Shown in pieces: positions 5,381 to 64,000 of a stretch of 64,000 bases of DNA. Under the pieces are notes generated by a model. That model did no database searches. It saw only the letters and a program-made list of their open reading frames with translations, and was not told where the DNA came from. Within the stretch, counting starts at the first letter, position 1; the number at the start of each line of letters is the position of its first letter. The DNA is from Candidatus Calditenuis fumarioli (lineage in GTDB: Archaea > Thermoproteota > Nitrososphaeria_A > Caldarchaeales > Calditenuaceae). The DNA is taken from contig JANVYR010000001.1 of assembly GCA_030059665.1 (NCBI GenBank), forward strand, positions 39,203 through 103,202, written 5' to 3'. Made by a program: the position numbers and the translations under genes.

Positions 5381-6238
5381 ATGGCCGAACCGCTCGTCGT
5401 TTTCTTCTACGGTCTCGTCACGAGCCTGATCTTCGCCCTCTACTCCGTGGGCTTCTCGCTCGTCTTCGGCGTGGCGAGGGTGATCGACGCAGCATACGGG
5501 ATCTGGTACACGACGGCCGCCTACCTGGTCTACGCCCTGGTGACGAGGTTGCTGCTCCCGCTTCCGGTGACGGTAGTAGTTGTGGTGGCCTCGATGGTCG
5601 CCCTCGGCATCAGCTATTACGCGGTCCTTGTGAGGGGCCTGCAGGAGAAGGTGGAAATGATAATGACCACGTTCCTCGTGGCGCTGATGGCACAGTACCT
5701 GATAGTTGCGATCTTCACCAACTTCCCGTGGTCTATACCGGCCCTCTTCCCAGGGTCTACGCAGGTCCTCGGAGTCTCCCTCTTCAACCAGCAGGTCGCC
5801 GCGGCGATCACCGCGTTCCTCCTACTGCTCGTCCTCTGGTACCTGGTCTACCGGACGAAGATGGGGCTCGCGATAAGGGCGGTCGCCCAGGACAAGGAGG
5901 CGGCCCTCCTCATGGGCATCAACCCCGACAGGGTGATGGCCTTCACGCTGGCGCTCTCCTGCTCCCTCGCAGGGATAGCGGCTCTTCTTCAGGCTCCCAA
6001 CTCGGTGATCTCACCGACGATGGGCTGGCCGATGCTGACCCTCGCCTTCGCGGTGGTGGTCCTCGGGGGAATGGGGGACTTCTTCGGAGCCATCATAGCT
6101 AGCTTCATCATAGGATTCTCCTACCAGCTGATAACTAACCTGGTCAACCCGCTCTACTCGATGGCCGCGGCGCTCGCCATGATCCTCCTCGTCCTCTGGC
6201 TGAGGCCCAGGGGCCTCTTCGGGAGGTCGCTGGAGTGA
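5381..6238 (+). CDS. livH: Branched-chain amino acid ABC transporter permease LivH-type
   Basis: 285-aa polytopic membrane protein with the LivH-family N-terminus (MAEPLVVFFYGLVTSLIFALYSVGFSLVFGV). It sits in an operon with LivM and LivG. Confidence 0.85.
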   Translation: MAEPLVVFFYGLVTSLIFALYSVGFSLVFGVARVIDAAYGIWYTTAAYLVYALVTRLLLPLPVTVVVVVASMVALGISYYAVLVRGLQEKVEMIMTTFLVALMAQYLIVAIFTNFPWSIPALFPGSTQVLGVSLFNQQVAAAITAFLLLLVLWYLVYRTKMGLAIRAVAQDKEAALLMGINPDRVMAFTLALSCSLAGIAALLQAPNSVISPTMGWPMLTLAFAVVVLGGMGDFFGAIIASFIIGFSYQLITNLVNPLYSMAAALAMILLVLWLRPRGLFGRSLE

Positions 6239-7155
6239 TGTCAGCCGTCAGACCCTCGCACCTCGCGGGCATCGCGTTGCTGGTGGTGCTCGCCGTGCTA
6301 CCAGCGCTGCCTGGGATGAGGGCGCTGCTCTTCCCGCTGACGCTCACCAACATAATGGCCACACTGGCGATAGCCTGGAACCTCCTCTTCGGCTACGCGG
6401 GCCTCCTCAGCCTGGGTCACTCGTTCTTCTTCGGTGCTGCGGGCTACGCCTCCGCGATCCTCTCGAAGAGCTACGGGATACCGGTACCGGTCGCGATGGT
6501 CATCGGCGCAGCGGTCTCCTCCGGCATCGCAGCCCTCGTCGGCCTCCCGAGCTTGAAGCTTAGGGGCCACTACTTCGTGCTGGTGACGCTCGTCCTCCCA
6601 GCGGTTGCTTACCAGCTGACGAACGCTCTGGACGTCCTCGGAGGCCACGACGGGATCTTCGGGGTACCGCCCCTTGTCAGGGACTCCTACGCGGTCTACC
6701 TCGGCAGCCTTTTCCTCATGCTCGCATCGCTGGTCGCATCCGCGTTCGTGATCAGGTCCCGGTTGGGGGTGGAGATGATCTCGGTGAGGGAGGACGAGGA
6801 GGCAGCGAAGGCCCTTGGCGTCGACACGCCGAGGGTCAAGCTGTACGCGCTGATGATCAGCGCCTTCCTCTCCGGCCTCGCGGGAGCCTACTGGGCCCAC
6901 CTCAACGGCGTCATCAGCCCATCGGTCTACGAGCTGGAGAAGGCGAGCATGCCACTGCTGATGAGCGTTCTGGGAGGGAAGGGCACGCTCCTCGGACCGG
7001 TGATCGGAGCATACGTGATCCAGACGCTCTTCGAGTCGCTGAAGATCGAGGCTATAGCGACGGCCAGGCTCTTCGTCTTCGCCGCAGCCACCTTCGCGAT
7101 CTACAGGATCTTCCCGCAGGGCCTCATGGGCGTGCTGAGGCGGGTGATAGGTTGA
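6235..7155 (+). CDS. livM: Branched-chain amino acid ABC transporter permease LivM-type
   Basis: 306-aa membrane protein. Its start overlaps the livH stop in a 4-nt ATGA overlap. LivM-like (AWNLLFGYAGLLSLGHSFFFGAGAY). Confidence 0.85.
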   Translation: MMSAVRPSHLAGIALLVVLAVLPALPGMRALLFPLTLTNIMATLAIAWNLLFGYAGLLSLGHSFFFGAAGYASAILSKSYGIPVPVAMVIGAAVSSGIAALVGLPSLKLRGHYFVLVTLVLPAVAYQLTNALDVLGGHDGIFGVPPLVRDSYAVYLGSLFLMLASLVASAFVIRSRLGVEMISVREDEEAAKALGVDTPRVKLYALMISAFLSGLAGAYWAHLNGVISPSVYELEKASMPLLMSVLGGKGTLLGPVIGAYVIQTLFESLKIEAIATARLFVFAAATFAIYRIFPQGLMGVLRRVIG

Positions 7156-8528: not shown

Positions 8529-9532
8529 ACGTGATCGGCAGGTTCCTCCGGTCGCCGCTCGCGGGCCTACTCATCGCTGGCGTAGTGATCCCTTTGGTCC
8601 TGCTGAGGGCCGGGGGAATAGGGCTGGAGGACCTGATGGACGTGGGGCCGGATCTTCTGGCAACGTCGCTGGCGCTGAACGGGCTCAGGTTCCTCGCGCA
8701 GGGCATGAGGCTCCACGCGCTCCTCAACGCAGCGGGCGTCCGGCAAAAGCTAACCCGCTCCGTGCTTATACGTGGAGCGAGCGAGTTCTTCGCGCTGACC
8801 GTCTTCCCCTTCGGCGCCGACGAGGCCTTCAGGACGGCCGTTCTCACGCGGCTCGGCCTCAGCGTCTGGACCTCCCTCAGGATCGCGTTCGCGGAGCTGA
8901 TCTTCGACGTGATGGTCGTCGCGCCCTTCGCTTTGGTAGCAGGAACCATAGCCCTCTCGGCCGGTAACGCCCACCTCGCCGCCTTACTCATACCGGTCGC
9001 GTCTGTCCAGCTGACGTTCTCGCTCGCGATCTCCAGCGTGGTCCTGAAGGGCACCGTCCCGAGGTCGAGGGTGATCGGGTGGGTGAGCTCGGTGACGTCG
9101 AGGTTCAGGGTCGGTGGCCTCAACCGCCCGGTGAGTGAGGAAGGGTGGACCGATGACCGCTCGGACCTCCGGAAACCCCAGCTCGTCGCGTCGATGACGC
9201 TCCTCTCGTTGGCCGTGATGCTCGCCCACGCGGTTCTTCTTCAGCTAGCGCTGAGCTCCTGGGGCATCGACCTCATCGTGGCCGTCATCGCCTTCTCCTC
9301 CGGCGGCGTTCTCGGATCGCTTCCCGTTACCGTGGGCGGAGCTGGCCTGACCGAGGCCGGGATACACCTCGCGCTCAGGTCCCTCTTCGGCGTCGACGAC
9401 CTGGAGGCCGTGCTGAAGTGGCGGCTGATGACCTACCACGTCTGCCTCGCCCTCTCGGCGCTCATTTTGCTCCTCTACGGCAGGAGAGTTAGGCAAGCTC
9501 CCGCGATCGGCGAGTCTCCCTCTGCCAGATGA
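8525..9532 (+). CDS. Lysylphosphatidylglycerol-synthase-TM / flippase-like (UPF0104-type) integral membrane protein
   Basis: 335 aa from the internal M (MNVIGRFLRSPLAGLLIAGVVIPLVLL...), with multiple TM helices. Its ATG overlaps the methyltransferase stop (ATGA). The longer track ORF 8084..9532 is an out-of-frame N-terminal extension across the methyltransferase gene. Confidence 0.6.
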   Translation: MNVIGRFLRSPLAGLLIAGVVIPLVLLRAGGIGLEDLMDVGPDLLATSLALNGLRFLAQGMRLHALLNAAGVRQKLTRSVLIRGASEFFALTVFPFGADEAFRTAVLTRLGLSVWTSLRIAFAELIFDVMVVAPFALVAGTIALSAGNAHLAALLIPVASVQLTFSLAISSVVLKGTVPRSRVIGWVSSVTSRFRVGGLNRPVSEEGWTDDRSDLRKPQLVASMTLLSLAVMLAHAVLLQLALSSWGIDLIVAVIAFSSGGVLGSLPVTVGGAGLTEAGIHLALRSLFGVDDLEAVLKWRLMTYHVCLALSALILLLYGRRVRQAPAIGESPSAR

Positions 9533-10656
9533 AACCCCTCAAGCTCCGTGATAGGTTTTTGTCAGCTGGCTCACATTACATTGACGTGGCAATCCGCATC
9601 CCCCTCAGGATCGAGCGGAGGCTCGAGGTCCCCGCCTCGGTCTCGCTCGCTATGACGGTCGTCTTCCTGGCCCTCGCGCTCCTCTTCGCGGCGTTCCTGA
9701 TGCAGGCGCTCGGCATCGACGCGATGAGCGTCCTCCACCAGATCGCCACCGTCTTCACCACGCGGGAGCTCCTCACCGCGGCGTTCCTCCGCTCAGTCCC
9801 GATCGGGCTGGCTGCCGTGGGCCTCACCGTCTCCTTCAGGGCCAACTTCTGGAACATAGGCGCCGAGGGGCAGATGTTCATGGGGATGTTCGCCTCCACG
9901 GGAATCGTGCTGCTGCACGCCTACTACGGCCTCATCCCAGGCTGGGCCCTCCTGCCGGCGATGGCCGCTGCCTCCTTCGTCGCCGGGGGCCTCTACTGTG
10001 CGCTTAGTGGGGTGCTGAGGTCGAAGCTCGGCGTCAACGAGGTCCTGACGACCCTGATGATGAACTTCATCGCCATCCTCTTCGTCGACTACCTGGTGTA
10101 CGGCCCCTGGAGGGACCCGAGGGGGTACGGCTTCCCGCTCTCGATACCGTTCCCTCCCGAGGCGAGGTTCGGTGGGCTGATGGGGGAGGCCTATGAGGGC
10201 CTGGCGCTGCTTGCGGTGCTCGCGGTTCTGACCCACCTGCTGATGACCCGCACCACCTTCGGCGTCGACGTCAAGGTCGTCGGCGAGAACCCCTACATCG
10301 CTGGGATCGCTGGCGTCCGAATCCCGAGGACCTACTTCCTCGTGAACCTGATCAGCGGCGGCCTCGCGGGCCTAGCGGGCTTCTTCCTGCTCTCGGGCAT
10401 CATCGGACGTCTGAGGCCCCGCGCCTCACCAGGGTACGGATACACCGCCATCATCATAGCCTTCCTCGCAGGCCTTCACCCGATCCTCGCGATCCCTGCG
10501 GCGGTCTTCATGGGCGGACTGATAGTTGCGGGCGACGTCCTTCAGGCGACGTTGAACCTGCCCTTCGCGGCCGTTCAGCTGCTCCAGTCCACGATCTTCG
10601 TGATGATCGTCGTGGCCGAGTTCGTCAAGCGGTACCGGATCATCTGGAGGTGGTGA
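9529..10656 (+). CDS. ABC transporter permease (BMP/nucleoside-simple-sugar family, YufP-like)
   Basis: 375 aa with a conserved NIGAEGQMFMGMF segment and multiple TM helices. The start is uncertain: it may be at the internal MTVVFLALALLF. Confidence 0.7.
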   Translation: MKPLKLRDRFLSAGSHYIDVAIRIPLRIERRLEVPASVSLAMTVVFLALALLFAAFLMQALGIDAMSVLHQIATVFTTRELLTAAFLRSVPIGLAAVGLTVSFRANFWNIGAEGQMFMGMFASTGIVLLHAYYGLIPGWALLPAMAAASFVAGGLYCALSGVLRSKLGVNEVLTTLMMNFIAILFVDYLVYGPWRDPRGYGFPLSIPFPPEARFGGLMGEAYEGLALLAVLAVLTHLLMTRTTFGVDVKVVGENPYIAGIAGVRIPRTYFLVNLISGGLAGLAGFFLLSGIIGRLRPRASPGYGYTAIIIAFLAGLHPILAIPAAVFMGGLIVAGDVLQATLNLPFAAVQLLQSTIFVMIVVAEFVKRYRIIWRW

Positions 10657-37401: not shown

Positions 37402-37425
37402 TCGAGGAAGGAGCTCCGATCCGGC

Positions 37426-37499
37426 GGCCGTCGTCTAGCCTGGTAGGACGGCGGGGCCCCGGCCCGCAGATCCCGGGTTCAAATCCCGGCGGCCGCATA
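37426..37499 (+). tRNA. tRNA, anticodon CCC (Gly?), 74 nt, no intron; atypical anticodon loop
   Basis: Manual cloverleaf:
- Acceptor gcggccg/cggccgc, U8.
- D-stem gtct/ggac with a GG-containing D-loop.
- Anticodon stem gcggg/cccgc with loop gcCCCgg.
- T-arm ccggg-ttcaaat-cccgg, discriminator A.
Position 33 is C and position 37 is G, both unusual, so the isotype is tentative. Coordinates are plus or minus 2 nt. Confidence 0.6.
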
Positions 37500-37567
37500 T
37501 GCTTCTAGAAACGACATCCGTGAAGGTTCTAGAGGCGAGCTGAGCGCCGTTGCTCGGTCGTTAAAGA

Positions 37568-38938
37568 ATGCTTAAAGATGAGCAAACAAGGAGTGCGAAA
37601 TGGATGTCGGAACGAGAAGTAGACCGAAGGCGACACGAATTAAAAGCAAAGAAAGCAAGGGAATTAAAACCAGATAAACTAACGTTAGAACCTCGAAGGA
37701 TCTACGTAAAGGACTTCGGCCCTATCAGGGAGGCTGATATTGAGTTGGGTAAGTTAACAATACTCATGGGACCGAATAACACAGGCAAGACCTTTACAGC
37801 TGCGCTGATACCTGCTCTAGAAGGTCTGATCATTAGCCTAACAATTATTGCAAGTGTGCCAATTTTCAAGTCTGATGAAAAGGAATATGAAAGATTTCTC
37901 AAAAACAGATTTAATGAGATTGTAATTAACATATATTCGGTTGATGATCCGAGACAGCTTATCAGACGAGGTTCTGATAATACAGTTTTAAGCTATTGGT
38001 TAAGTCCTATTGAAGTTTTGAAAGGAGATCACCAATTAAAAATAGAGTTCGATAGAACAGGTGGGATGACTTTTGATTTAGATGGGCTTAGGGAGTTGAT
38101 CAATAATAAAATAGCCCCCCTGTTATCTCCTGTTGTTTTCATACCTGCCGAGAGGGCAGGAATAATGAGGACCTACAAGCAGCTGCTCAGACTTCACTTA
38201 GAGACGAGCTGGTCTTTTGTTCCTCCATCGCTCAGGCAAAAGGTCGTGGAACTGTTAGGCAGCAAAGTGCGGCTTCCTGGACTCGTGAGGATGCTACTTG
38301 ACGAGATACTCAGCATAGAGAGGTTCACCTTAGAGGAACGGCAGAGGTCCGATGTAGGAGGAGCACTAGAAGTGCTGGAGGAAGAAGTTCTGCGAGGAAG
38401 GTTAGAAATGGGGGAAGACCTTTCGGTAAAGTATCACGAGGCGGCAGCTGAGAACCCAATAGACCTGATTAATGCATCCTCCATGGTATCCGAAGTCTCA
38501 GCAATCTACCTGCTGTCTGGAATGTTGAGACGCGGCGGGTGGCTAATCATCGAGGAACCGGAGGCCCATGTCCATCCACGGGGACAGATGGGACTGGCCA
38601 GGTTCATGGCCAGGCTGGTCCGACTCGGCGTGAACGTCGTTGCCACCACCCACAGCGACCTGATAGCGCTCAAGCTGGCGCAGATGGTCGGCCTCGCCAA
38701 ACTAAGCCCAGAGCAGCGGCGCAGTCTCGGGTACCGGGAAGACGAGTACCTCCAGAAGGACGAGCTCGCCCTTTACTTCTTTGAGCCGACGGAGAGCGGC
38801 TCCGTGACAAGGAAGGTGGAGGTCTCGGAGACCGGTGAGGTGGAGGACCTACCAACATATTCTAGAGTTACGGAGGAGATGTACGGTGAAGCCGTCAAAT
38901 TGCTCGAGCTTCATGGGAAAATTCCAAAACTACCTTAA
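37568..38938 (+). CDS. AAA_15/AAA_21-family SMC-like ABC ATPase (OLD/PtuA/GajA/AriA-like ATPase subunit of defence systems)
   Basis: 456 aa, or 444 aa if it starts at the internal MSEREV at 37604, which sits about 28 nt downstream of a TTAAAG TATA-like element. Motifs:
- Walker A: GPNNTGKT.
- Q-loop-like: FIPAERAG.
- Walker B / D-loop: WLIIEEPEAHVHP.
- H-loop: VVATTHS.
- A long helical insert between the ATPase half-sites. Confidence 0.7.
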   Translation: MLKDEQTRSAKWMSEREVDRRRHELKAKKARELKPDKLTLEPRRIYVKDFGPIREADIELGKLTILMGPNNTGKTFTAALIPALEGLIISLTIIASVPIFKSDEKEYERFLKNRFNEIVINIYSVDDPRQLIRRGSDNTVLSYWLSPIEVLKGDHQLKIEFDRTGGMTFDLDGLRELINNKIAPLLSPVVFIPAERAGIMRTYKQLLRLHLETSWSFVPPSLRQKVVELLGSKVRLPGLVRMLLDEILSIERFTLEERQRSDVGGALEVLEEEVLRGRLEMGEDLSVKYHEAAAENPIDLINASSMVSEVSAIYLLSGMLRRGGWLIIEEPEAHVHPRGQMGLARFMARLVRLGVNVVATTHSDLIALKLAQMVGLAKLSPEQRRSLGYREDEYLQKDELALYFFEPTESGSVTRKVEVSETGEVEDLPTYSRVTEEMYGEAVKLLELHGKIPKLP

Positions 38939-39317
38939 ACACAGAAGCTCGGACCTGCAGTTTTACGACTTCGAGAACGCAGTGTTAACTGTGAACGGCG
39001 TGGAGAAAGCTAAGGGCGGGTGCGACTATGCCGTATTATCAAACGAAGGGGAGAACTGCAACCTCATACTCGTTGAGTGCAAGCGCGGACGACTTGGGGT
39101 AAGAGATTTCGAGCAAGGGAAAGCGCAGCTAGAGTGTGGGATCCGCTTCATTTTCAACGCGTTCGGCGAACCGCCTGATTTGGCGGTCCTATGCTGCGAG
39201 AAACTCGATCCTATGGTAACCAAGATTCTACAACTACCCAAAAACCAAAGATTGGTCCATAATGTCCCGCTCATCCGCAAAGGGCTAAAAGAATCCGATT
39301 GTAGATGCTGCCGCTAA
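38913..39317 (+). CDS. Small protein with a PD-(D/E)xK nuclease-like core (candidate effector partner of the ATPase)
   Basis: 134 aa from the internal M (MGKFQNYLKHR...). It overlaps the ATPase 3' end by 26 nt in a different frame. GGCDYAVLSNEGENCNLILVECKRG gives a D ... (18 aa) ... E-x-K pattern with a hydrophobic beta-strand before ExK. The C-terminus is Cys-rich (ESDCRCCR). The track ORF begins 26 codons earlier, with no ATG there. Confidence 0.45.
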   Translation: MGKFQNYLKHRSSDLQFYDFENAVLTVNGVEKAKGGCDYAVLSNEGENCNLILVECKRGRLGVRDFEQGKAQLECGIRFIFNAFGEPPDLAVLCCEKLDPMVTKILQLPKNQRLVHNVPLIRKGLKESDCRCCR

Positions 39318-39383
39318 TGAGATTCGACCTCTTTCTCACTCTCGTGCACTTCAACCGGAAATCTCAACTCGTAGAAATCGTTG

Positions 39384-39472
39384 AGCCCCGGGAGGGATTC
39401 GAACCCTCGACCACCGGCTCACCCGGATCAGGGTCATACGAGGCCGGCGCTCTACCGCTGAGCTACCGGGGC
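39384..39472 (-). tRNA. tRNA-Thr (anticodon CGU) with a 17-nt intron after position 37
   Basis: Minus-strand cloverleaf: acceptor gccccgg/ccggggc, U8, D-arm gctc-agcggta-gagc, anticodon stem ccggc/gccgg with loop cuCGUa + intron tgaccctgatccgggtg + a, variable tggtc, T-arm gaggg-ttcgaat-ccctc, discriminator U. Total 89 nt. Confidence 0.7.
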
Positions 39473-39493
39473 CCTCGGCCGTATCGCCCTACC

Positions 39494-39509
39494 AGTTTGA
39501 ATTTAACCC
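39494..39509 (-). promoter_or_regulatory. Putative TATA box for tRNA-Thr
   Basis: The minus-strand sequence gggttaaattcaaactgg is centred about 30 nt upstream of the tRNA 5' end. Confidence 0.45.
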
Positions 39510-39518
39510 TCAGCCCCG

Positions 39519-39953
39519 TCAACGCCGTCTGGGCCTCGAGAGCCCCCAGCTGACCTTCTTCTCAGGAACAAGCTTGATCACCACCGCCTCGCCCTCGTCC
39601 CAGGGGTCGGCCCGGGCCCACTCGAACCTCTCGTAGAACACCTCCGAGACCCTCCTGAACTCCTCTCCGGAGGTCAGAAGCTCGACGGGCCCCTCGACGA
39701 GGACTGCCCTGTTGGGCTTGTAGACGTCGACGACCAGCGCCGCGTAGGGGTTCCTCTCGAGGTTCCTGTGCTTCTTGGTTCCGGGATCCGTGACCATGTA
39801 GAACGCGCCGTCGAGGTAGACGTAGCAGATCGGTACGACGTGGGGCCTGCACCGCTCGTCGACCGTCGCCAAGCGGCAGAGCTCCATCCTCCTGAGGAAC
39901 TCCAGCTCGGCATCCGTGAAGCTCACCGGGGCCACAACCGTCCTGCCGCACAA
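39519..39953 (-). CDS. Pyridoxamine 5'-phosphate oxidase-like FMN-binding family protein (PPOX class, possibly F420/FMN dependent)
   Basis: 144 aa. ELEFLRRMELCRLATVDERCRPHVVPICYVYLDGAFYM is typical of the PNPOx-like split-barrel family. Confidence 0.7.
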   Translation of the reverse strand: MCGRTVVAPVSFTDAELEFLRRMELCRLATVDERCRPHVVPICYVYLDGAFYMVTDPGTKKHRNLERNPYAALVVDVYKPNRAVLVEGPVELLTSGEEFRRVSEVFYERFEWARADPWDEGEAVVIKLVPEKKVSWGLSRPRRR

Positions 39954-52452: not shown

Positions 52453-53925
52453 TCAGAACTGATACCTCTCCCTGAGGGCGTGGTACAGGTCGAGGTCCGA
52501 GACCACCTCATCGACCGGTGCGGGGTCGAGCTCCCTCGGATCCGATATGCGGCCGTTGATGGCGGATGCGGCGGCGGTCGCTGGGCTAGCCAGGTGGGTC
52601 CTGGCGTTGGGGCCCTGACGGTGCTCGAAGTTCCTGTTCGACGTCGAGACGCACCTCTTACCCGGCTCAACCCTGTCGCCCGGAGCCATCGCGATGCAGT
52701 AGCTGCATCCGGAGTTCCTCCACTCGAACCCAGCCTCGATCAGCACCCTGTGGATGCCGAGACGCTCCGCCCACCTCTTCGTTACCATCGATCCCGGAAC
52801 GACCACTGCCTTGACCCCTGGAGCCACCCTCCTCCCCTTCACGAGACGGGCCACCTCTATCAGGTCCGAGAGCCTCGCGTTGGTGCACGAGCCGATGAAG
52901 ACCACGTCAACGGGCGTCTCCGAGATCTTCTGGCCCGGCCTCAGGCCCATGTACTTCAGAGCCCTCTCCACCGAGACTCTCTGCGCCGGATCGGCGAAGT
53001 CCTCGGGCGATGGCACCTCCTCCGTGACGCCCACCGTCTGGGCCGGGTTGGTGCCCCAGGTGACCTGAGGCTCGATCCGGGAGACGTCGAACTCGTGCCT
53101 CTTGTCGTAGACCGCGTCGTTGTCGGTCCTGAGCTGGGCCCAGTACCTCACCGCCTCCTCCCAGTCCTCGCCCCTCGGTGCCAGCGGCCTCCCCTTCAGG
53201 TACCTGAGCACCTTCTCGTCAGGGGAGATTATCGCGGTCCTCGCGCCCCCCTCGATGGACATGTTGCAGAGGGTCATCCGGTCGTCGACGCTCATCCTTT
53301 CGACCGTCTCGCCGGTGAACTCCATCACGTGCCCGATGCCTCCTCCTGTCCCGATGCTGCGGATCACGTAGAGGATCACGTCCTTGGCAGACACGCCCTC
53401 CCTCATCTGCCCCCTCAGCCTGATCTCCATCTTCTTGGGCTTCTTCAGCCAGAGCGTCTGCGTCGCGAAGACGTGCTCGCCCTCGCTCGTCCCGATCCCG
53501 AAGGCTAGGGCACCGAAGGCGCCGTGGGTGCTGGTGTGGGAGTCGCCGCAGGCCACGGTCAGACCCGGGAGCGTGAGGCCGAGCTCCGGCATGATCACGT
53601 GAACGATCCCCTGGTAAGGGCTGAAGTAGTCGAACAGCGTTACGCCGAACTCCCTCGCGTTCCTCTTGAGGGCCTCCATCTGGGCCGCCGACATCTCGTC
53701 CGTCACGGGCAGCGTCCTGTCGTAGGTCGGGACGTTGTGGTCCATCACCGCGAAGGTCAGGTCCGGCCTCCTCACCTTCCTCTTAGCGGCCCTCAGCCCC
53801 TCGAAGGCGATCGGAGAGGTGACCTCGTGCGTGTAGTGGCGATCTATGTACAGGAGGGTCATGCCGTCCTCGCGCTCAGCCAGGGCGTGTGCGTCCCAGA
53901 TCTTCTCGAAGACCGTCCTTCCCAC
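52453..53925 (-). CDS. Aconitase-family dehydratase large subunit (3-isopropylmalate dehydratase LeuC-like / homoaconitase-like)
   Basis: 490 aa. Fe-S cluster cysteines (GSCTNARLSD; CSYCIAM) and the LeuC large-subunit layout. No small subunit is adjacent. Confidence 0.8.
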   Translation of the reverse strand: MGRTVFEKIWDAHALAEREDGMTLLYIDRHYTHEVTSPIAFEGLRAAKRKVRRPDLTFAVMDHNVPTYDRTLPVTDEMSAAQMEALKRNAREFGVTLFDYFSPYQGIVHVIMPELGLTLPGLTVACGDSHTSTHGAFGALAFGIGTSEGEHVFATQTLWLKKPKKMEIRLRGQMREGVSAKDVILYVIRSIGTGGGIGHVMEFTGETVERMSVDDRMTLCNMSIEGGARTAIISPDEKVLRYLKGRPLAPRGEDWEEAVRYWAQLRTDNDAVYDKRHEFDVSRIEPQVTWGTNPAQTVGVTEEVPSPEDFADPAQRVSVERALKYMGLRPGQKISETPVDVVFIGSCTNARLSDLIEVARLVKGRRVAPGVKAVVVPGSMVTKRWAERLGIHRVLIEAGFEWRNSGCSYCIAMAPGDRVEPGKRCVSTSNRNFEHRQGPNARTHLASPATAAASAINGRISDPRELDPAPVDEVVSDLDLYHALRERYQF

Positions 53926-58407: not shown

Positions 58408-59169
58408 TCAACCCTCCTCCCTCGTAGGCCTTGTGGCCGCGTGGGCACCAGCTGTGACGTCGATCCTCGAGATGGCCCTGAGGACTGCCCTGCCTACCCT
58501 CTCGACGTGGCCCTTGAGCTCCTCGGCGTGGTGCATAGGAACGTGCTCCACGAGGTTGTCGCTCACCAGAAGTGCCGCACCCGACTTGACGCCGCGCATC
58601 ATGCAGATCCCGAATACCGTGGCGCACTCCATCTCCACGGAGATGTACCCGCGGCCGACCCACTTCCTGACGAACTCGGGGTCCTCGGCGTAGAAGGCGT
58701 CGCTAGAGAAGACCGGCCCGATGAAGTGCCTTATGCCTTCCCGCTCGAGCTCCTCGACCGTCGCCCTCAGGACGTCGAAGGAGGGCACCGGGGTTATCCT
58801 GGCGTCAGGGATGTACTGGAGCAACGGGCCGCTGACGTACGCCGCTCCGGTGGGAACCACCACGTCGCCTATCCTCATCCCCGGGAGGAAGGCCCCTGTG
58901 GTGCCGAGCCTGAAGATCAGCCTCGATCCAAGCATGATCAGCTCCTCGACGATCCCCGCAGCTGACGAGCCGCCGACCCCGTGGGTCGCAACGGTGACTC
59001 GCACGCCGCCGAACCTGCCGGTGTAGGTCAGGAAGCCCCTGCTCTCGTTCACCAGCTTGGCGTCCTCCAGAAGCCCCGCCAGCTGCCTCGCCCTCGCGGG
59101 ATCCCCCACCACGATCGAGCGCTCGGCGATCTCCCCTGGTTTAGCCCTGATGAAGACCGGCTCCGGCAC
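58408..59169 (-). CDS. Purine/uridine nucleoside phosphorylase (PNP/UDP-1 family)
   Basis: 253 aa from an internal GTG (VPEPVFIRAKPGEIAERSIVVGDPARAR...). The family motif GYISVEMECATV is present. The upstream 96 codons of the track ORF have no homology and extend into the divergent promoter region. Confidence 0.65.
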   Translation of the reverse strand: MPEPVFIRAKPGEIAERSIVVGDPARARQLAGLLEDAKLVNESRGFLTYTGRFGGVRVTVATHGVGGSSAAGIVEELIMLGSRLIFRLGTTGAFLPGMRIGDVVVPTGAAYVSGPLLQYIPDARITPVPSFDVLRATVEELEREGIRHFIGPVFSSDAFYAEDPEFVRKWVGRGYISVEMECATVFGICMMRGVKSGAALLVSDNLVEHVPMHHAEELKGHVERVGRAVLRAISRIDVTAGAHAATRPTREEG

Positions 59170-59285: not shown

Positions 59286-59296
59286 CTTTTATTAGG
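59286..59296 (+). promoter_or_regulatory. Putative TATA box for the ubiquitin-like / E2 / E1 operon
   Basis: cttttattagg is centred about 30 nt upstream of the ATG at 59321 (a leaderless configuration). Confidence 0.45.
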
Positions 59297-59320: not shown

Positions 59321-59557
59321 ATGAAGGTCAGGATCGTGCCGGCGGTTGGTGGAGGGCCCCCTTTGGAGATAGACGTTCCTCCCTCAACGACCATCGGGGC
59401 GATCAAGCTCAGGGTCTGCGCGATGAAGAAGCTCAGGCCCGACGACACCCGTCTCACCTACAAGAACAGGGCCCTCAGCGACACTGAAACGCTCGAGTCG
59501 GCCGGGGTCTCCGACGGCGACAAGCTCGTCCTCGTGACAAGGACCGTCGGGGGCTGA
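59321..59557 (+). CDS. Ubiquitin homolog (beta-grasp, C-terminal Gly-Gly)
   Basis: 78 aa, MKVRIVPAVGG...LEIDVPPSTTIGAIKLRV...TRLTYKNRALSDTETLESAGVSDGDKLVLVTRTVGG. It aligns along its length to eukaryotic ubiquitin (LEVEPSDTIENVKAKI ... [36 protein letters not shown]) and ends in GG. Confidence 0.7.
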   Translation: MKVRIVPAVGGGPPLEIDVPPSTTIGAIKLRVCAMKKLRPDDTRLTYKNRALSDTETLESAGVSDGDKLVLVTRTVGG

Positions 59558-59594
59558 GCGGTTGCAGAGGGAGGTCCAGGAGCAGATCGGCTTC

Positions 59595-60065
59595 ATGCCG
59601 GAGCCCCTCTGGTTCAAGAGGATAGCGCTGGAGTACCAGCTGATCAGGAACTACGAGCCCACCTTCGACGCCGTCGACGGCGACCTCACCCATTACAGAG
59701 GCGTCATAGTGGGGACGGGCTACTACGAGGGCGGTTTCTTCCTGGTGGAGATCTTCCTGGACCGCACCTTCCCCTACACGCCCCCCAGGGTGGTCTGGCA
59801 CACCAGGATCTGGCACCCCAACTTCACCGATGAATCGCCAGCGAGGATCTGTGAGTCGATCCTGACGAAGGACTGGCACCCCAACACCAACGTGATAGCT
59901 GTGATCGAGGCGCTGAAGAACCTCCTCTCCAACCCCAACCCCGACGACCCGCTCAACGCATGGGCGGCCTACGAGATGAAGAACTCCTTCCACACCTTCA
60001 TCGCAAGGGTCCGGCAGTACATCGAGCTGTACGCGTCCCCGGAGAAGGTGCTGAGGCAAGGGTAA
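59595..60065 (+). CDS. Ubiquitin-conjugating enzyme E2 (UBC fold)
   Basis: 156 aa from the ATG (MPEPLWFKRIALEYQLI...), preceded by an AGGAG RBS-like element. The track ORF starts at a TTG 11 codons upstream. YEGGFFLVEIFLDRTFPYTPPRVVWHTRIWHPNF has the E2 HPN motif. The catalytic Cys is in ARICESIL, and there is a C-terminal helix. Confidence 0.75.
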   Translation: MPEPLWFKRIALEYQLIRNYEPTFDAVDGDLTHYRGVIVGTGYYEGGFFLVEIFLDRTFPYTPPRVVWHTRIWHPNFTDESPARICESILTKDWHPNTNVIAVIEALKNLLSNPNPDDPLNAWAAYEMKNSFHTFIARVRQYIELYASPEKVLRQG

Positions 60066-60069
60066 CGAC

Positions 60070-61254
60070 TTGAGCGCAGGGAGCGAGCTGAGCGAGCGCT
60101 ACGACCGCCAGATGCGGATCTCCGGATGGAACCAAGAGCTGGTCAGCGGAGCCTCCGTGCTGATCGCCGGCGTAGGAGCCCTCGGCTGCGAGGTCGCCAA
60201 GAACCTCGCCCTCTCCGGTGTCGGCAGGATAGTCTTGGTGGATCGGGACGTCGTGGAGCTCAGCAACCTGAACAGGCAGATGCTCTTCGACGAGTCCGAC
60301 ATAGGGAGGAAGAAGGCGGAGGCTGGCGCTGAGAAGCTGAGGGCCATGAACCCCCACATCAGGATCGAGGCCTACCCCTCAGACCTGAGGGACCTCCCCG
60401 CGGAGCTCTTCGCCTCGGTCGACGTGATCTGCTCGTGCCTCGACAGCTGGGGCATCAGGAGGTGGCTCAACTCCGTCGCGGTCCTGAACAACAAACCCCT
60501 CGTCGACGGCGGCATCGAGGGCATGGTCGGGAACGTGCAGGTCGTGATCCCGGGCAGAACCGCGTGCCTCGAGTGCCACGGGACCACCCTCATCCCGCAG
60601 GAGGAGAGGATGGCCGAGTGCACGCTCCGACGGAGGAGGCCGGAGGAGCTGATCGAGGACCTCAAAGCTCAGGGCCTCGAGATCTCCCGAGAGCAGGCGG
60701 AGGCCCTCTTCAGGCACAACCTGAAGACCGTCTTCGACCTGAAGTACACGCCACCCGAGTCGGTCCCAGACGGAGAGGTCAGGTCGCTCCTCGAGTCCAT
60801 CAGGGAGAAGCTCAAGCCGAGGATGCCGGCAGTCCAGAGCGTCTCGTCCGTGATCGCCGGGATCGTCTCGACCGAGGTGCTGAAGATAATCCACCGCGGA
60901 TCCATCGGTAGACCCATGAGGGGCCTGCTGGTCTACGACGCCTCCAACTCGAGGTTCACGAGGGTGCCTCTGAAGAGGATGGAGAACTGCATAGTCTGCG
61001 GCCAGGTGGACACCTCACCGCCCGAGGTCACCCTGGAGGACGGCGCCACCGTTTACAGGCTCAAGGAGGTGATAGCGGAGAGGTTCGGCTTCCCGGATGC
61101 GGAGGTGATCCACGGTACCCGCGTGCTCGGGGAAGACGCGCCGCTCTCCTCCGTCCTCGGGCCGTCCGGGGAAGGGCTCCTGTACGTTGTCACGACGAGG
61201 AGGTACGAGCCCCTTCCCATCGTCGTCAAGCTCAGGGCACCGGGAGACCGGTAG
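60070..61254 (+). CDS. E1-like ubiquitin-activating enzyme (ThiF/MoeB/HesA superfamily)
   Basis: 394 aa. RYDRQMRISGW...VLIAGVGALGCEVAKNLALSGVG is the nucleotide-binding Gly-rich motif. Zn-binding CLEC...CIVC pairs are present. The C-terminal domain is about 140 aa. TTG start, 4 nt after the E2 stop. Confidence 0.8.
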   Translation: MSAGSELSERYDRQMRISGWNQELVSGASVLIAGVGALGCEVAKNLALSGVGRIVLVDRDVVELSNLNRQMLFDESDIGRKKAEAGAEKLRAMNPHIRIEAYPSDLRDLPAELFASVDVICSCLDSWGIRRWLNSVAVLNNKPLVDGGIEGMVGNVQVVIPGRTACLECHGTTLIPQEERMAECTLRRRRPEELIEDLKAQGLEISREQAEALFRHNLKTVFDLKYTPPESVPDGEVRSLLESIREKLKPRMPAVQSVSSVIAGIVSTEVLKIIHRGSIGRPMRGLLVYDASNSRFTRVPLKRMENCIVCGQVDTSPPEVTLEDGATVYRLKEVIAERFGFPDAEVIHGTRVLGEDAPLSSVLGPSGEGLLYVVTTRRYEPLPIVVKLRAPGDR

Positions 61255-61305: not shown

Positions 61306-61869
61306 ATGGCGTCGGACGAGGAGGGAGCTGGCAGGTCCCAGGAGCTCGCGGAGCTGAAGTCCTGGCTTGAGAGGAGGATCTCGGAGCTCTCGGCAGAGCT
61401 GGAGAGGCTGCGCGCGGTCATGAGGTACGTCGACGAGCTCCTCGCCGAGTCGAGCTTCAGGAGGGCCGACTCCCTGGTCACGAGGAGAGCGACCGAGGAG
61501 ATGAGGGCGCCGCATCCGGAGGAGAGGCCGTCCCTGAGGACGATCAGGAGCAGATCCGGAACCGCACTGGCCACCCTCACCTACACGCAGGACGTCGCCA
61601 GGTTCGTGCTGAACCCTGACATCGTGGTTACGAAGGACCACAGGCCCTTCGCATCGTTCCTGCTGAAGAAGGTCCTCGAGGGCTACGTCAACCAGGACAT
61701 GGAGCTGGTGAGCAGGGGCCTGCTCGACGCGAACCTCGCTTTCAGCTACGAGGTGGTCTACGAGGGCGAGAGGGTCAAGGAGATCGAGGTGAGGAATTAC
61801 CGGGAGGAGGCGAGGTTGAGGGAGATCATCAACGCCGTCCGTTGGACGCTCGAGACCGCGCTTGCCTGA
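61306..61869 (+). CDS. Hypothetical coiled-coil protein downstream of the E1 (no Cys/His metal motif)
   Basis: 187 aa. An N-terminal coiled-coil (ELAELKSWLERRISELSAELERLRAV), preceded by a GGAGG RBS. No recognisable domain. Confidence 0.4.
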   Translation: MASDEEGAGRSQELAELKSWLERRISELSAELERLRAVMRYVDELLAESSFRRADSLVTRRATEEMRAPHPEERPSLRTIRSRSGTALATLTYTQDVARFVLNPDIVVTKDHRPFASFLLKKVLEGYVNQDMELVSRGLLDANLAFSYEVVYEGERVKEIEVRNYREEARLREIINAVRWTLETALA

Positions 61870-61884: not shown

Positions 61885-62760
61885 TCAAGCCTGCGACTGG
61901 CTCCCAACAGAGACGTCCTCGGCCGGTCTCCAGACGTCCCTCAGGCGGTCCATCAGCGTCCTCCTGAGCCTGACCGTAACGTTCCTCGAGACCTCGATCA
62001 TCTCGTCGAGGAGGGACTCCGGTATCAGGCCCGGCGAGTCCTTCTGGATGGCCGCCAGCTCGTCGTCCGTTCCCCACCCTATCACGATCGAGGCGTCCAG
62101 CGCCGGCTCCTCAAGCGCCGTCGGGTCCACGATCACCTTGTCCCTGAGGATCCCGATCATCGCCGCGGTCGGGAGCTTCACCAGCGGAAGCGGCACCCTC
62201 TCGCCAGCGACCTTCGTGACCACCCCGTTCTGGACCTCGTACCTCTGGACCCTTGCCGATGCGAGGGCAGCGGTGGCCGCCAGAACCGCAGGCGCGAAGT
62301 AGTCGCCGTCGAAGTCGAGGACGTAGACGTCGACGTAGACGACTCCCACCTTCTGACCCGGGACGTAGACCAGCTGGTCCAGCCGGAGTGCCTGCGACTC
62401 CCTGATGCACCTGTCGACGAACCTGGAGAGTTCTATCGCGTTCTCGTCCGGAGGCCCCGGCTCGAAGGTCCTCGACGCGAGGGGTAGGAGCTCCGCGTTG
62501 ACCGTCAGGTTCCCCTTGTCAGGCGTGTCGGGGTAAGGCGACCCCAGATCGTACTTCACGCCAGCGACGACCCTCGTCTTCCCGAGCGTGACCATCGCCG
62601 AGCCCTCCGCCTTCTCGACCACGTTCAGCTCCACCGAGACGGGCCTGTGCTGGAGGAGGCCCCTGCCGTCGATCCGTCTGCCCTGGAGCAGCAGCTCGTA
62701 CAGCTTCCTCTGCAGTATCTGCGTCGGGTAGGGCTTCTCGCCGAGCCGGAAGACGCTCAA
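61885..62760 (-). CDS. rrp42: Exosome complex component Rrp42
   Basis: 291 aa. An RNase PH-like fold lacking phosphorolytic residues, positioned after rrp41. Confidence 0.85.
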   Translation of the reverse strand: MSVFRLGEKPYPTQILQRKLYELLLQGRRIDGRGLLQHRPVSVELNVVEKAEGSAMVTLGKTRVVAGVKYDLGSPYPDTPDKGNLTVNAELLPLASRTFEPGPPDENAIELSRFVDRCIRESQALRLDQLVYVPGQKVGVVYVDVYVLDFDGDYFAPAVLAATAALASARVQRYEVQNGVVTKVAGERVPLPLVKLPTAAMIGILRDKVIVDPTALEEPALDASIVIGWGTDDELAAIQKDSPGLIPESLLDEMIEVSRNVTVRLRRTLMDRLRDVWRPAEDVSVGSQSQA

Positions 62761-62761
62761 C

Positions 62762-63490
62762 TCAATCGGTCACCTCTCCGTAGGCCGCGAACCTCTTCTG
62801 GAGCGCCTTCTTCTGGGCCTCGTAGAGGACCTCTATCCCCTTCTTGGCCATACGCATGGCCTCCGAGAACTCCTCCCTCGTGAGCCGGCCGTTTAGCTGG
62901 AGCAGCACGATCGAGTTTATCGAGGGAGCCATCCCAACCGGCAGGTCGGCCTCGCAGTTCTTGTCCTCCTCCTCGCTCAGGTCCAGGACCAGCCTACCGG
63001 CAACCTTACCCACGGCGACGCCCGCAACGAGATCGGCCATAGGAATCCCAGCGTCGGCCAGCGCCAGAGAGGCGGCCGTGAGCCCTGCGGTCCTGGTTCC
63101 TGCGTCGGCCTGGATCACCTCCACGAAGACCTCGATCATCGACCTCGGGTACTCCTCCAGGAACAGGACGCTCTCCAGGGCCTCCCTGATGACCTTCGAG
63201 AGCTCGTGCTCCCTCCTCGTCATCCCAGGGGCCTTCCTCTCGGAGACGCTGAAGGTCGCCATGTGGTACCTGCACTGGAGGATGGCCCTGTGGGGCTGCG
63301 CGATATGCCTCGGATGCGCCTCCTTCGGGCCGTAAACCGCGGCGTAGATCTTGGTCTTCCCCATCTCGATGTAGGCGGAGCCGTCGGCGTTCTCCAGGAC
63401 CCCGACCTCCATCCTGAAGGGCCTCAGCTCGTCGGGCTTCCTGCCGTCGACGCGGGTACCGTCCTCCCTGATGAGCAATGCCTTCTCCAT
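62762..63490 (-). CDS. rrp41: Exosome complex exonuclease Rrp41
   Basis: 242 aa from the internal M ([17 protein letters not shown]...). An RNase PH domain with the phosphate-binding region. Its ATG overlaps the rrp4 stop (ATGA). Confidence 0.9.
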
Positions 63491-64000
63491 CACTCCTCCA
63501 CCAGCTCCTCCCAAAGCGCCCTCCTCAAGACCCCCATCACCTTCTCCTTAAGGCCCTCGAGCGTCGGCTCGGTATCGACCAGCCTGATCGCCGACGCGGC
63601 TGCGAACTCGTTCTTCGTCGACGGCCCGACGATCGCGATGTAGCCGTTCATGCCGATGTAGAGCTTGCACTGGGACTCGCGCTCGATGGTCTCTTGGAGC
63701 TCCCTGTCCCGCACCAGCAACCTCGGTACCCTCGTGGGCGACATGGTGACTATGAAACCCCGGGTTATCCTGTGGGCGTCCTTTCCTCCCTTCAGCATCA
63801 CGCCCTTCACCCCCGCGAAGGCGATGGCCGTGTAGATCACGTCGCCTATCGTGACCTGGGACTCCTTCCCGGACTTCTTCGCTTTCTTGGCCCTGAGGAT
63901 GCCGGTTATGCCCCAGCCGAGGTCGAGCTCGTAATAACTCGGCTTGATGTCGACGACGATCCCTATCACCCGGTCGTTCTCCCTCGGCTTGTAGGGCCCC
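63490..64000 (-). CDS. rrp4: Exosome complex RNA-binding protein Rrp4 (S1 + KH), C-terminal part; the N-terminus lies beyond the right edge of the window
   Basis: The translation continues without a stop to the window edge (..[30 protein letters not shown]...[14 protein letters not shown]). The KH domain is visible. Confidence 0.7.

Follow-up and report, generated by a model that had tools for sequence, protein, structure and literature searches.

Archaeal ubiquitin operons are used to model the ancestral system from which eukaryotic ubiquitin signalling descends. The operon of Caldiarchaeum subterraneum, reportedly first described by Nunoura in 2011, spans CSUB_C1473-C1477 and encodes Rpn11, ubiquitin (Ub), the conjugating enzyme E2, the activating enzyme E1 and a small RING protein. 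The E1/E2/RING cascade of this archaeon was reconstituted in vitro by Hennell James 2017 (PMC5654768), and E1~Ub and E2~Ub thioesters as well as lysine conjugation were shown there for its own proteins. Structures of its ubiquitin and Rpn11 were reported by Fuchs 2018 (PMC6043591). All five ubiquitin component types were found in six genomes of Caldarchaeales in a survey (PMC6053391). The targets and the cellular role of archaeal ubiquitin have stayed obscure as C. subterraneum is uncultured (PMC5654768). Here we analyse a ubiquitin locus of Candidatus Calditenuis fumarioli, located at 59321-61254 of a 64,000-nucleotide (nt) stretch of contig JANVYR010000001.1 (assembly GCA_030059665.1); this whole stretch is called the window below.

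At 59321-61254 three adjoining open reading frames (ORFs) lie on the + strand in the order Ub, E2, E1. Judged from sequence, they make up an intact Ub/E2/E1 ubiquitylation operon of the Caldarchaeales ('Aigarchaeota') type. With a probability of about 0.85 we read them as a functional Ub-E2-E1 cassette that has been reduced at this locus in a lineage-specific way; what we observed directly, and draw on for this reading, is which genes are present, their motifs, folds and orthology, the pattern of synteny and the purifying selection on the genes.

A scan of species-representative genomes yielded 80 loci, designated by L-numbers. Kindred operons in Caldiarchaeum and Asgard archaea, mentioned in an earlier note on this DNA, were recovered among them, and the eukaryote-like cassette of Caldiarchaeum type proposed in that note is borne out by Pfam, PDB and orthology, which agree. 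The nearest loci come from Ca. Calditenuis and Calditenuaceae metagenome-assembled genomes (E2 83-97% identical to that of the window); E2 identity is 58-77% in other Caldarchaeales (58-62% in Caldarchaeum) and 42-50% in Asgard archaea. Order and strand of Ub, E2 and E1 are conserved in about 70 loci, with identities to the window proteins of 64-100% (Ub), 58-97% (E2) and 44-85% (E1). Five public contigs, among them JAVYLA010000002.1 of GCA_038741315.1, encode an E1 identical to that of the window. Genus names follow PMC12979851, where JGI-OTU-1 is Calditenuis, HRBIN02 is 'Candentenecus' and JANXDH01 is 'Caldaricola'.

The closest described system is that of C. subterraneum, which belongs to the same order. 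The two share Ub, E2 and E1 genes on one strand, with orthologous products (Ub 57/78, E2 about 60% and E1 about 46-53% identical), and have in common the TVGG end of Ub, the HPN motif and Cys of E2, and the CTLRRR catalytic Cys and two CxxC pairs of E1. In contrast to C. subterraneum, the window locus lacks the small RING ligase (E3), the membrane-anchored second RING, Rpn11 and the conserved coiled-coil genes; its Ub has no nine-residue tail past Gly-Gly, and the flanking positions are held by a PNP/UDP-type phosphorylase gene (the PNP gene) and by a gene for a 187-residue protein (p187). Asgard clusters (Heimdall-, Hermod-, Thor- and Baldr-archaeota, L073-L085) also have UBC-type E2s at the identity given above, but their sequences are more distant and their gene order differs: some loci (L075 and L080) have RING, Ub, E2 and E1 in a row, with RING upstream, unlike Caldarchaeales, and many Asgard E2s stand alone.

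The evidence for reduction at the locus comes from comparison with these relatives. We ran tblastn on all loci with the window proteins, C. subterraneum Rpn11, its small RING and its two neighbouring coiled-coil proteins as queries; in addition, profile hidden Markov models (HMMs) built from 87 Rpn11 homologues and from 77 RING segments were run unfiltered on all six-frame ORFs of the window and L001-L022. Within the 64-kb window neither a RING nor a JAMM domain was found by tblastn, motif scans or the unfiltered HMMs, so that three methods agree with the earlier note, which had seen none; none was found either within up to 8 kb on each side in six other Calditenuis-genus genome loci. The HMMs gave no JAMM or RING match at E ≤ 10 in any Calditenuis locus (window, L001-L011). 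Among the window and L001-L022, JAMM was detected in L012-L022 only, at about 1e-78, and the C. subterraneum controls (L061) gave JAMM at 1e-85 and two RINGs at 6e-29 and 2e-20. RING was absent, by tblastn and unfiltered HMM, from the window and from all 23 Calditenuaceae loci.

Three layouts emerge. In layout (a), that of most Caldarchaeales (Caldarchaeum, Terraquivivens, Wolframiiraptor, Geocrenenecus, Pelearchaeum and others), a ∼260-aa coiled-coil gene is followed by Rpn11 (divergent), Ub, E2, E1, the small RING gene and a ∼100-aa coiled-coil gene, with a gene for a membrane protein carrying a C-terminal RING about 2 kb further on; both RINGs were confirmed as zf-RING_2. Layout (b), that of 'Candentenecus' (HRBIN02) and related Calditenuaceae outside the genus Calditenuis (L012-L022, L090), runs coiled-coil gene, Rpn11, Ub, E2, E1; the 4-7 kb downstream of it hold no RING, and E1 of L017 is followed by a convergent, threonine-dehydratase-like gene. 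In layout (c), restricted to the genus Calditenuis (window, L001-L011), Ub, E2, E1 and p187 are followed by convergent exosome genes Rrp42-Rrp41-Rrp4, and neither Rpn11 nor RING is present. Upstream of layout (c) lies the PNP gene (window, L006, L011) or a pair of genes for a 167-aa and an MCM-like 668-aa protein (L007). The PNP gene, whose start is at 59169, sits where other Caldarchaeales have Rpn11. The GC content of Calditenuis loci is 60-67%, and that of the other loci 37-58%.

This distribution supports a loss of the RINGs at the locus in the family Calditenuaceae and then of Rpn11 in the genus Calditenuis. The 'reduced variant' that the earlier note had considered thus gains support at the level of the locus, by synteny and HMMs across relatives. 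The other Calditenuaceae (L012-L022, L090, and 'Caldaricola' L042 and L091) resemble the window in being RING-less and in having a Ub gene that ends at Gly-Gly; their E2s are 63-77% identical to that of the window and have a loop 7 ending in Asn. Unlike the window genus, they retain Rpn11 with its coiled-coil neighbour, placed divergently beside Ub or, in Caldaricola, together with Ub at a separate site. Two candidates were discarded: a degenerate RING just after E1 in L017 and L020 (E = 0.43, an unstarted frame overlapping the convergent gene, with no RING pattern), and a JAMM motif match at 53495-53536 of the window, which is in the wrong frame within an aconitase-family gene.

Table 1. Features of the ubiquitin locus and its immediate flanks in the window, with ratios of nonsynonymous to synonymous substitution rates (dN/dS) for the three cassette genes
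Feature	Position	Strand	Size and context	Basis	dN/dS vs L006	dN/dS vs L007
PNP/UDP-type phosphorylase	58408..59169	-	253 aa, divergent	Pfam PNP_UDP_1 E = 1.8e-38; 253-aa gene call in L001-L005		
TATA-like element cttttattag	59286..59295	+	ends 25 nt 5' of Ub ATG; TTTTATTA core 26 nt	read from sequence		
Ubiquitin gene	59321..59557	+	78 aa, ATG start, TGA stop	Pfam, PDB matches, dN/dS	0.02	0.08
E2 gene	59562..60065	+	167 aa, TTG start 4 nt past Ub stop	Pfam, alignment, PDB, model	0.04	0.11
E1 gene	60070..61254	+	394 aa, TTG start 4 nt past E2 stop	Pfam, PDB, alignment	0.13	0.33
p187	61306..61869	+	187 aa, 51 nt past E1	long N-terminal helix + alpha/beta domain		

In layout (a) two coiled-coil genes without a Pfam family, at 6170-6964 (-) and 9883-10194 (+) of L061, occupy the same positions in >40 other loci. 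The ∼260-aa gene adjoins Rpn11 and the ∼100-aa gene directly follows the small RING gene; the former stays with Rpn11 even in a split cluster (L091) and was lost jointly with Rpn11 in Calditenuis. Both may be unrecognised components of the ubiquitin system. In Terraquivivens (L030 8469-10500 and L050 8469-9357) E2 and E1 lie 0.9-2 kb apart, and the operon is interrupted; the insert of L030 holds two opposite-strand membrane (transporter-like) ORFs.

The 78-aa ubiquitin begins MKVRIVPAVGGG and ends TRTVGG directly before TGA; the codons of Gly77-Gly78 are at 59549-59554, no residues follow them, and lysines are present at positions 2, 29, 36, 37, 48 and 68. It matches Pfam ubiquitin (PF00240) with E = 1.2e-11 and 44.6 bits (curated cut-off 25.4), and the solved structures of C. 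subterraneum ubiquitin (6FJ7, 2MQJ, 6FNN and 5ZEW) with E about 1e-35; human ubiquitin and NEDD8 are matched by residues 12-78 in the PDB search. Identity is 73% to C. subterraneum ubiquitin and 22/78 (28%) to human ubiquitin. C. subterraneum ubiquitin is made with a tail of nine residues that is cut off by Rpn11 (PMC6043591). The window Ub would need no such processing because its encoded end is Gly-Gly-stop. This ending is found in all Calditenuaceae, and also in several genera that have both RING and Rpn11; the idea that it goes with the loss of Rpn11 was therefore dropped, since loci with Rpn11 (L012-L022 and those of several RING-bearing genera) have it too.

The 167-aa product of the second gene is, on its sequence and predicted structure, a UBC-fold E2. 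It matches Pfam UQ_con above the curated cut-off (E = 3e-26, 92 bits) and UBE2D-, UBE2K- and UBE2N-type PDB structures with E of 1e-18 to 1e-20. The AlphaFold model, built on 14 homologues, has a mean pLDDT of 93.4 and superposes on UbcH5A/B/C with a Foldseek TM score of 0.83 at 30-33% identity. The HPN motif (residues 85-87, 59814-59822), within IWHPNF, and the catalytic Cys97 (codon 59850-59852) are both invariant in the alignment of the 14 homologues. Loop 4 reads FPYTPP, and loop 7 reads DWHPN (residues 104-108).

The E1 matches Pfam ThiF above the curated cut-off (E = 2e-61). Its GxGxxG occupies residues 34-39 (60169-60186), and its catalytic Cys184 (codon 60619-60621) is in MAECTLRRRR, where it aligns with Cys600 of yeast Uba1 (IPLCTLRSF, with CTLR in common). 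GxGxxG 34-39, Asp125, Cys184 and the zinc cysteines Cys166/169/307/310, which form two CxxC pairs, are invariant across 64 E1s of related loci. After the ThiF domain there is a C-terminal extension of about 80 residues; weak ubiquitin matches were obtained from this region in L015, L061, L068 and L090, whereas the C-terminus of the window E1 gave no alignment with Ub in BLASTP. The extension may be a ubiquitin-fold domain of the kind that recruits E2.

SAMP/UbaA (small archaeal modifier protein) and Urm1-type systems work without an E2 and also act as sulfur carriers. Like the window, those of SAMP/UbaA (Haloferax) and Urm1 type combine a beta-grasp modifier ending in Gly-Gly with a ThiF-family E1. 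A rival explanation would make the locus a sulfur-carrier or sampylation locus with a ThiS/MoaD-type protein and a MoeB/UbaA-type E1. The adenylation domain of the window E1 does match ThiF/MoeB models at 1e-34 to 1e-41, as every E1 does, but it stays far under every ThiF, MoeB and UbaA equivalog cut-off of NCBIfam (109 bits vs a cut-off of 450 for SAMP-activating UbaA, 117-138 vs 266-376 for MoeB). In the PDB search the active adenylation domain of Uba1 (7e-42) and UBA3 (7e-40) match it better than MoeB (3e-28) and ThiF (7e-26), and for Uba1/UBA3 against MoeB this extends over the catalytic-Cys region. The Pfam scan gave no ThiS/MoaD match for the 78-aa protein, which is of the ubiquitin family, and a UBC-fold E2, absent from SAMP systems, sits between the Ub and E1 genes. 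The earlier note had set a sulfur-transfer locus against its own proposal, for the case of a ThiS/MoaD grouping and no UBC fold; the ubiquitin-family match and the TM score of 0.83 speak against it. We reject this explanation as extremely improbable.

With the eukaryotic cascade (Uba1/UBA3, UBE2D-type E2, Ub) the window proteins share folds and catalytic logic. The differences are that the window E1 is a single-domain protein, which would need dimerisation (Uba1 has about 1000 aa), that there is one E2, and that no E3 or deubiquitinase (DUB) families are present in the neighbourhood.

Both junctions of the cassette, Ub/E2 and E2/E1, consist of a stop codon, 4 nt and TTG. The spacing and the TTG starts suggest coupled translation of E2 and E1. 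The TATA-like element cttttattag is inside the 151-nt divergent intergenic region common to Ub and the PNP gene. It occurs in identical form and at the same distance in L006 and L011, with a variant, ccttatttag, at the equivalent position in L007-L010, and is the putative promoter of the operon. A single Ub-E2-E1 transcript with coupled translation, which we infer, is plausible. Third-position GC is 0.84-0.91 in the three frames, like the rest of the window (63-64% GC). An antisense ORF at 59475-60059, with a third-position GC of only 0.53, was set aside as spurious.

The E2 start required a choice between ATG 59595, which would give 156 aa and a 37-nt spacer, and TTG 59562. The codon that corresponds to ATG 59595 is CTA (Leu) in L006, the closest relative (E2 97% identical), and CTC or CTA in L007, L009 and L010; in L008 the protein likewise has Leu there. 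Upstream of this codon the peptide is kept among relatives (EQIGF / EEVGL), and a TTG exactly 4 nt past the Ub stop is found in the window, L006, L007, L009 and L010, all Calditenuis-genus loci. Because of this Leu codon, together with the conservation of the upstream peptide and of TTG, the true start is almost certainly TTG 59562; several public gene calls likewise start E2 there. The first reading of the locus had the compact operon of three + strand ORFs with the right motifs, the 78-aa ubiquitin homolog with its Gly-Gly end, the 394-aa E1 with a Gly-rich loop and CxxC pairs, and non-ATG starts for E2 and E1, all of which stood (its own E2 nevertheless began at ATG 59595). For E2 its HPN motif and active-site Cys were correct; its length of 156 aa and its 37-nt spacer have to be replaced by 167 aa and 4 nt. 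In L001 (JAVYLA010000002.1 of GCA_038741315.1), a run of N and a duplicated 5' E2 fragment are found between Ub and E2 at 9262-9525; this looks like a scaffolding artefact, which would explain the 170-aa E2 call there, and the window sequence is clean at this place.

With two of the five classic components missing from the locus, the three genes might be a decaying remnant, unused after the loss of E3 and deubiquitinase. We estimated dN/dS by the Nei-Gojobori method for the window genes against L006 and L007. The values range over 0.02-0.33 (Table 1) at a synonymous divergence of 0.6-1.25; purifying selection acts on each of the three genes even though their partners are absent from the locus. 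Moreover, seven distinct genomes or contigs of the genus Calditenuis carry the three ORFs intact, the catalytic residues are invariant, and the promoter box and start codons are conserved. Decay is thus very improbable, and we reject it.

The E2 itself differs on the surface that contacts RING. In C. subterraneum the RING-binding surface of E2 is made of loop 4 (Pro67-Tyr68) and loop 7 (Pro103-Ser104, in WSPS); changing loop 4 from PY to AA abolished RING-dependent ubiquitylation, and in loop 7 the change from PS to AQ considerably impaired it, whereas PS to AA did not (PMC5654768). In every RING-bearing locus, loop 7 of the encoded E2 has S, T, A, G or P directly after WxP. In all RING-less Calditenuaceae loci matched by the motif scan (23/23) it is W[HYEF]PN: WHPN in the window, as against WSPS in C. 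subterraneum, and W[YF]PN in L012-L022 and L090; RING-less Caldaricola L042 has WYAN, which the motif scan did not match. A few WSPS loci scored as RING-less are contigs that end just after, or before, E1. The change in loop 7 is suggestive of a relaxed or altered E3 interface.

WHPN occurs twice in the window E2, at 59811-59822 (residues 84-87, the catalytic HPN) and at 59874-59885 (residues 105-108, loop 7). The loop-7 copy is limited to the species of the window; relatives have WEPN or WYPN.

How far the reduction extends beyond the locus has to be weighed against a serious alternative, to which we give somewhat less than an even chance: that the system is complete, with a RING or other E3 and an Rpn11-type DUB encoded elsewhere in the genome and a cascade as in C. 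subterraneum. Several observations favour it and weigh against our reading. Unlinking of the cluster does occur in Calditenuaceae: Caldaricola (JANXDH01) has E2-E1 at L042 6212-9651, near a proteasome subunit gene with one gene between, and, far from there in that genome, a second group (L091 5585-7388) made up of Ub, here 79 aa long, Rpn11 and the coiled-coil gene. The transporter genes between E2 and E1 in Terraquivivens likewise show that the cluster can break. At some other site the Calditenuis genome may hold a gene for a RING, a U-box protein, another E3 or a JAMM protein from another subfamily. The correlation of loop 7 with RING amounts to a single evolutionary event. The window E2 has also kept Pro-Tyr of loop 4 (FPYTPP), which the C. 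subterraneum E2 must have to act with RING; loop 4 may be kept for binding E1, or for an E3 that is still present. Substrate modification by the C. subterraneum system in vitro depended on RING (PMC5654768). Finally, our search for Rpn11 elsewhere, with the Rpn11 of L017 (the nearest) as query against a collection of 5.8 billion proteins, used a word index and can miss divergent relatives. The E2 of Caldaricola has an insertion before the catalytic Cys.

The outcome of the Rpn11 search nevertheless speaks against a complete system. It recovered 93 proteins, of which 87 could be mapped back to loci, and no Calditenuis Rpn11 orthologue was among them: all mapped matches (87/87) fit a non-Calditenuis lineage best. 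Most full-length matches are 73-100% identical to their best locus; the exceptions are P0071 (65%), P0079 (68%), P0130 (51%) and P0145 (38%). An E2 that apparently goes with P0071 is 71% identical to that of the window, which points to a lineage other than the window's. The search can find an unlinked Rpn11, because the distant Caldaricola copy was recovered by it, and Calditenuis is well sampled in the same protein collection, where its E2 cluster has 80 member sequences. Further points against a complete system are the lack of RING and JAMM within 64 kb, the Asn in E2 loop 7, at a place where activity with RING suffered from a bulky polar residue, and a Ub that needs no processing.

Taken at the locus, the reduction that we propose is an observation; genome-wide we favour it for Rpn11 only. 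That the genus Calditenuis has truly lost the Rpn11-type DUB is somewhat more probable than not. A genome-wide absence of any E3 has at best an even chance. The strongest form of the proposal, in which RING and Rpn11 were lost genome-wide in Calditenuis and a self-sufficient ubiquitylation system is left that consists of Ub, E1 and an E2 whose loop 7 has been remodelled, we regard as unlikely; E2 itself would then pick the targets, and Ub would be removed by a non-dedicated protease or not at all.

By homology to the E1 and E2 enzymes of C. subterraneum and eukaryotes, the cassette would work as follows; we infer its transcription, thioester chemistry and targets by analogy. A single transcript behind the TATA-like box would carry Ub, E2 and E1. 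Ub would be produced already mature, with its Gly-Gly end, and require no processing protease. E1 would bind ATP, adenylate Gly78 of Ub and take Ub onto Cys184 as a thioester, from which it would be passed to Cys97 of the UBC-fold E2. The least certain step is the last, the transfer from E2 to target lysines, which may be E3-independent and carried out by E2 or may depend on an unlinked or an unrecognised E3; between E3-independent transfer and an unlinked, unrecognised E3 the odds appear roughly even.

A ubiquitin system in Caldarchaeales was already known, and the RING-less and Rpn11-less form of the locus is a modest addition. In the Calditenuis and Caldarchaeales papers that we examined, no such form is mentioned and ubiquitin appears at most in introductions; a 2026 paper on Calditenuaceae does not mention it. 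The loci provide a natural series within one archaeal order, from at least five components down to three, with a matching change on the RING-contacting surface of E2, and this series permits a direct test of which components are dispensable. Calditenuis ramacidaminiphagus, whose genome is GCA_050589285.1, is available as a stable enrichment and there reaches up to 49% of the community; the metaproteome of the G-10 culture is public as MassIVE MSV000093641 (PMC12979851). With a cultured Calditenuis, natural substrates could be sought directly through Lys-TVGG remnants. If the three proteins do suffice, no simpler ubiquitin system would be accessible to work in living cells.

The flanks are as the earlier note described them, with the divergent PNP/UDP phosphorylase upstream and a coiled-coil protein, p187, downstream. 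The p187 gene directly follows E1 in every Calditenuis locus. Homologues 42-53% identical to it occur in other Caldarchaeales directly after the gene of an ATP-dependent DNA ligase and not in the vicinity of Ub genes (for example, L086 6001-6606 and L088 6001-6555), and 39 positions are invariant among 23 sequences, so that p187 is a conserved Caldarchaeales family. It matches no Pfam, NCBIfam or PADLOC family, and its confident model gave no informative fold match. We considered p187 as a replacement E3 or adaptor and dropped the idea: it has no cysteines and no family match, and its homologues follow the DNA ligase gene. It is not counted in the system because of this latter placement, away from Ub genes, and is probably not a component of it. 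Further downstream, the convergent exosome genes Rrp42, Rrp41 and Rrp4 (61885-63969, -) form a neighbourhood that is conserved in all Calditenuis-genus loci; SBDS comes next in L001.

This setting bears on one more explanation, namely an antiviral defence module of the bacterial Ub-like type (Bil or CBASS-Cap2-like) that would tag phage or host proteins on infection instead of acting in housekeeping proteostasis. The adenylation domain of E1 does match CBASS 'E1-E2' (Cap2) models, up to 4.6e-25, and an island with a defence-like ATPase gene lies 20 kb away. However, only this generic domain (residues about 19-180) matches PADLOC, and E2 and Ub have no match in it, version 2.0.0 being a 2023 library that may lack Bil models. 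The E2 is of eukaryote type, with a UBC fold and no fusion to E1, and the cassette, passed on vertically throughout the order, occupies a stable chromosomal position between housekeeping genes (PNP, exosome) and has the GC content of the genome. A defence role appears highly improbable.

The island itself is a low-GC segment at 37424-39553 (GC 0.555 vs about 0.63, third-position GC 0.52). It begins at a tRNA-Gly(CCC) gene (37424-37497) and ends near an odd tRNA-like call (39383-39472, -). Its gene at 37568-38938 encodes a 456-aa AAA_15/AAA_21 ATPase with matches to PD-T4-4_A, a model for candidate defence proteins (4.9e-32), and to Gabija/OLD-type ATPases, and the segment looks like an integrated element or a defence islet.

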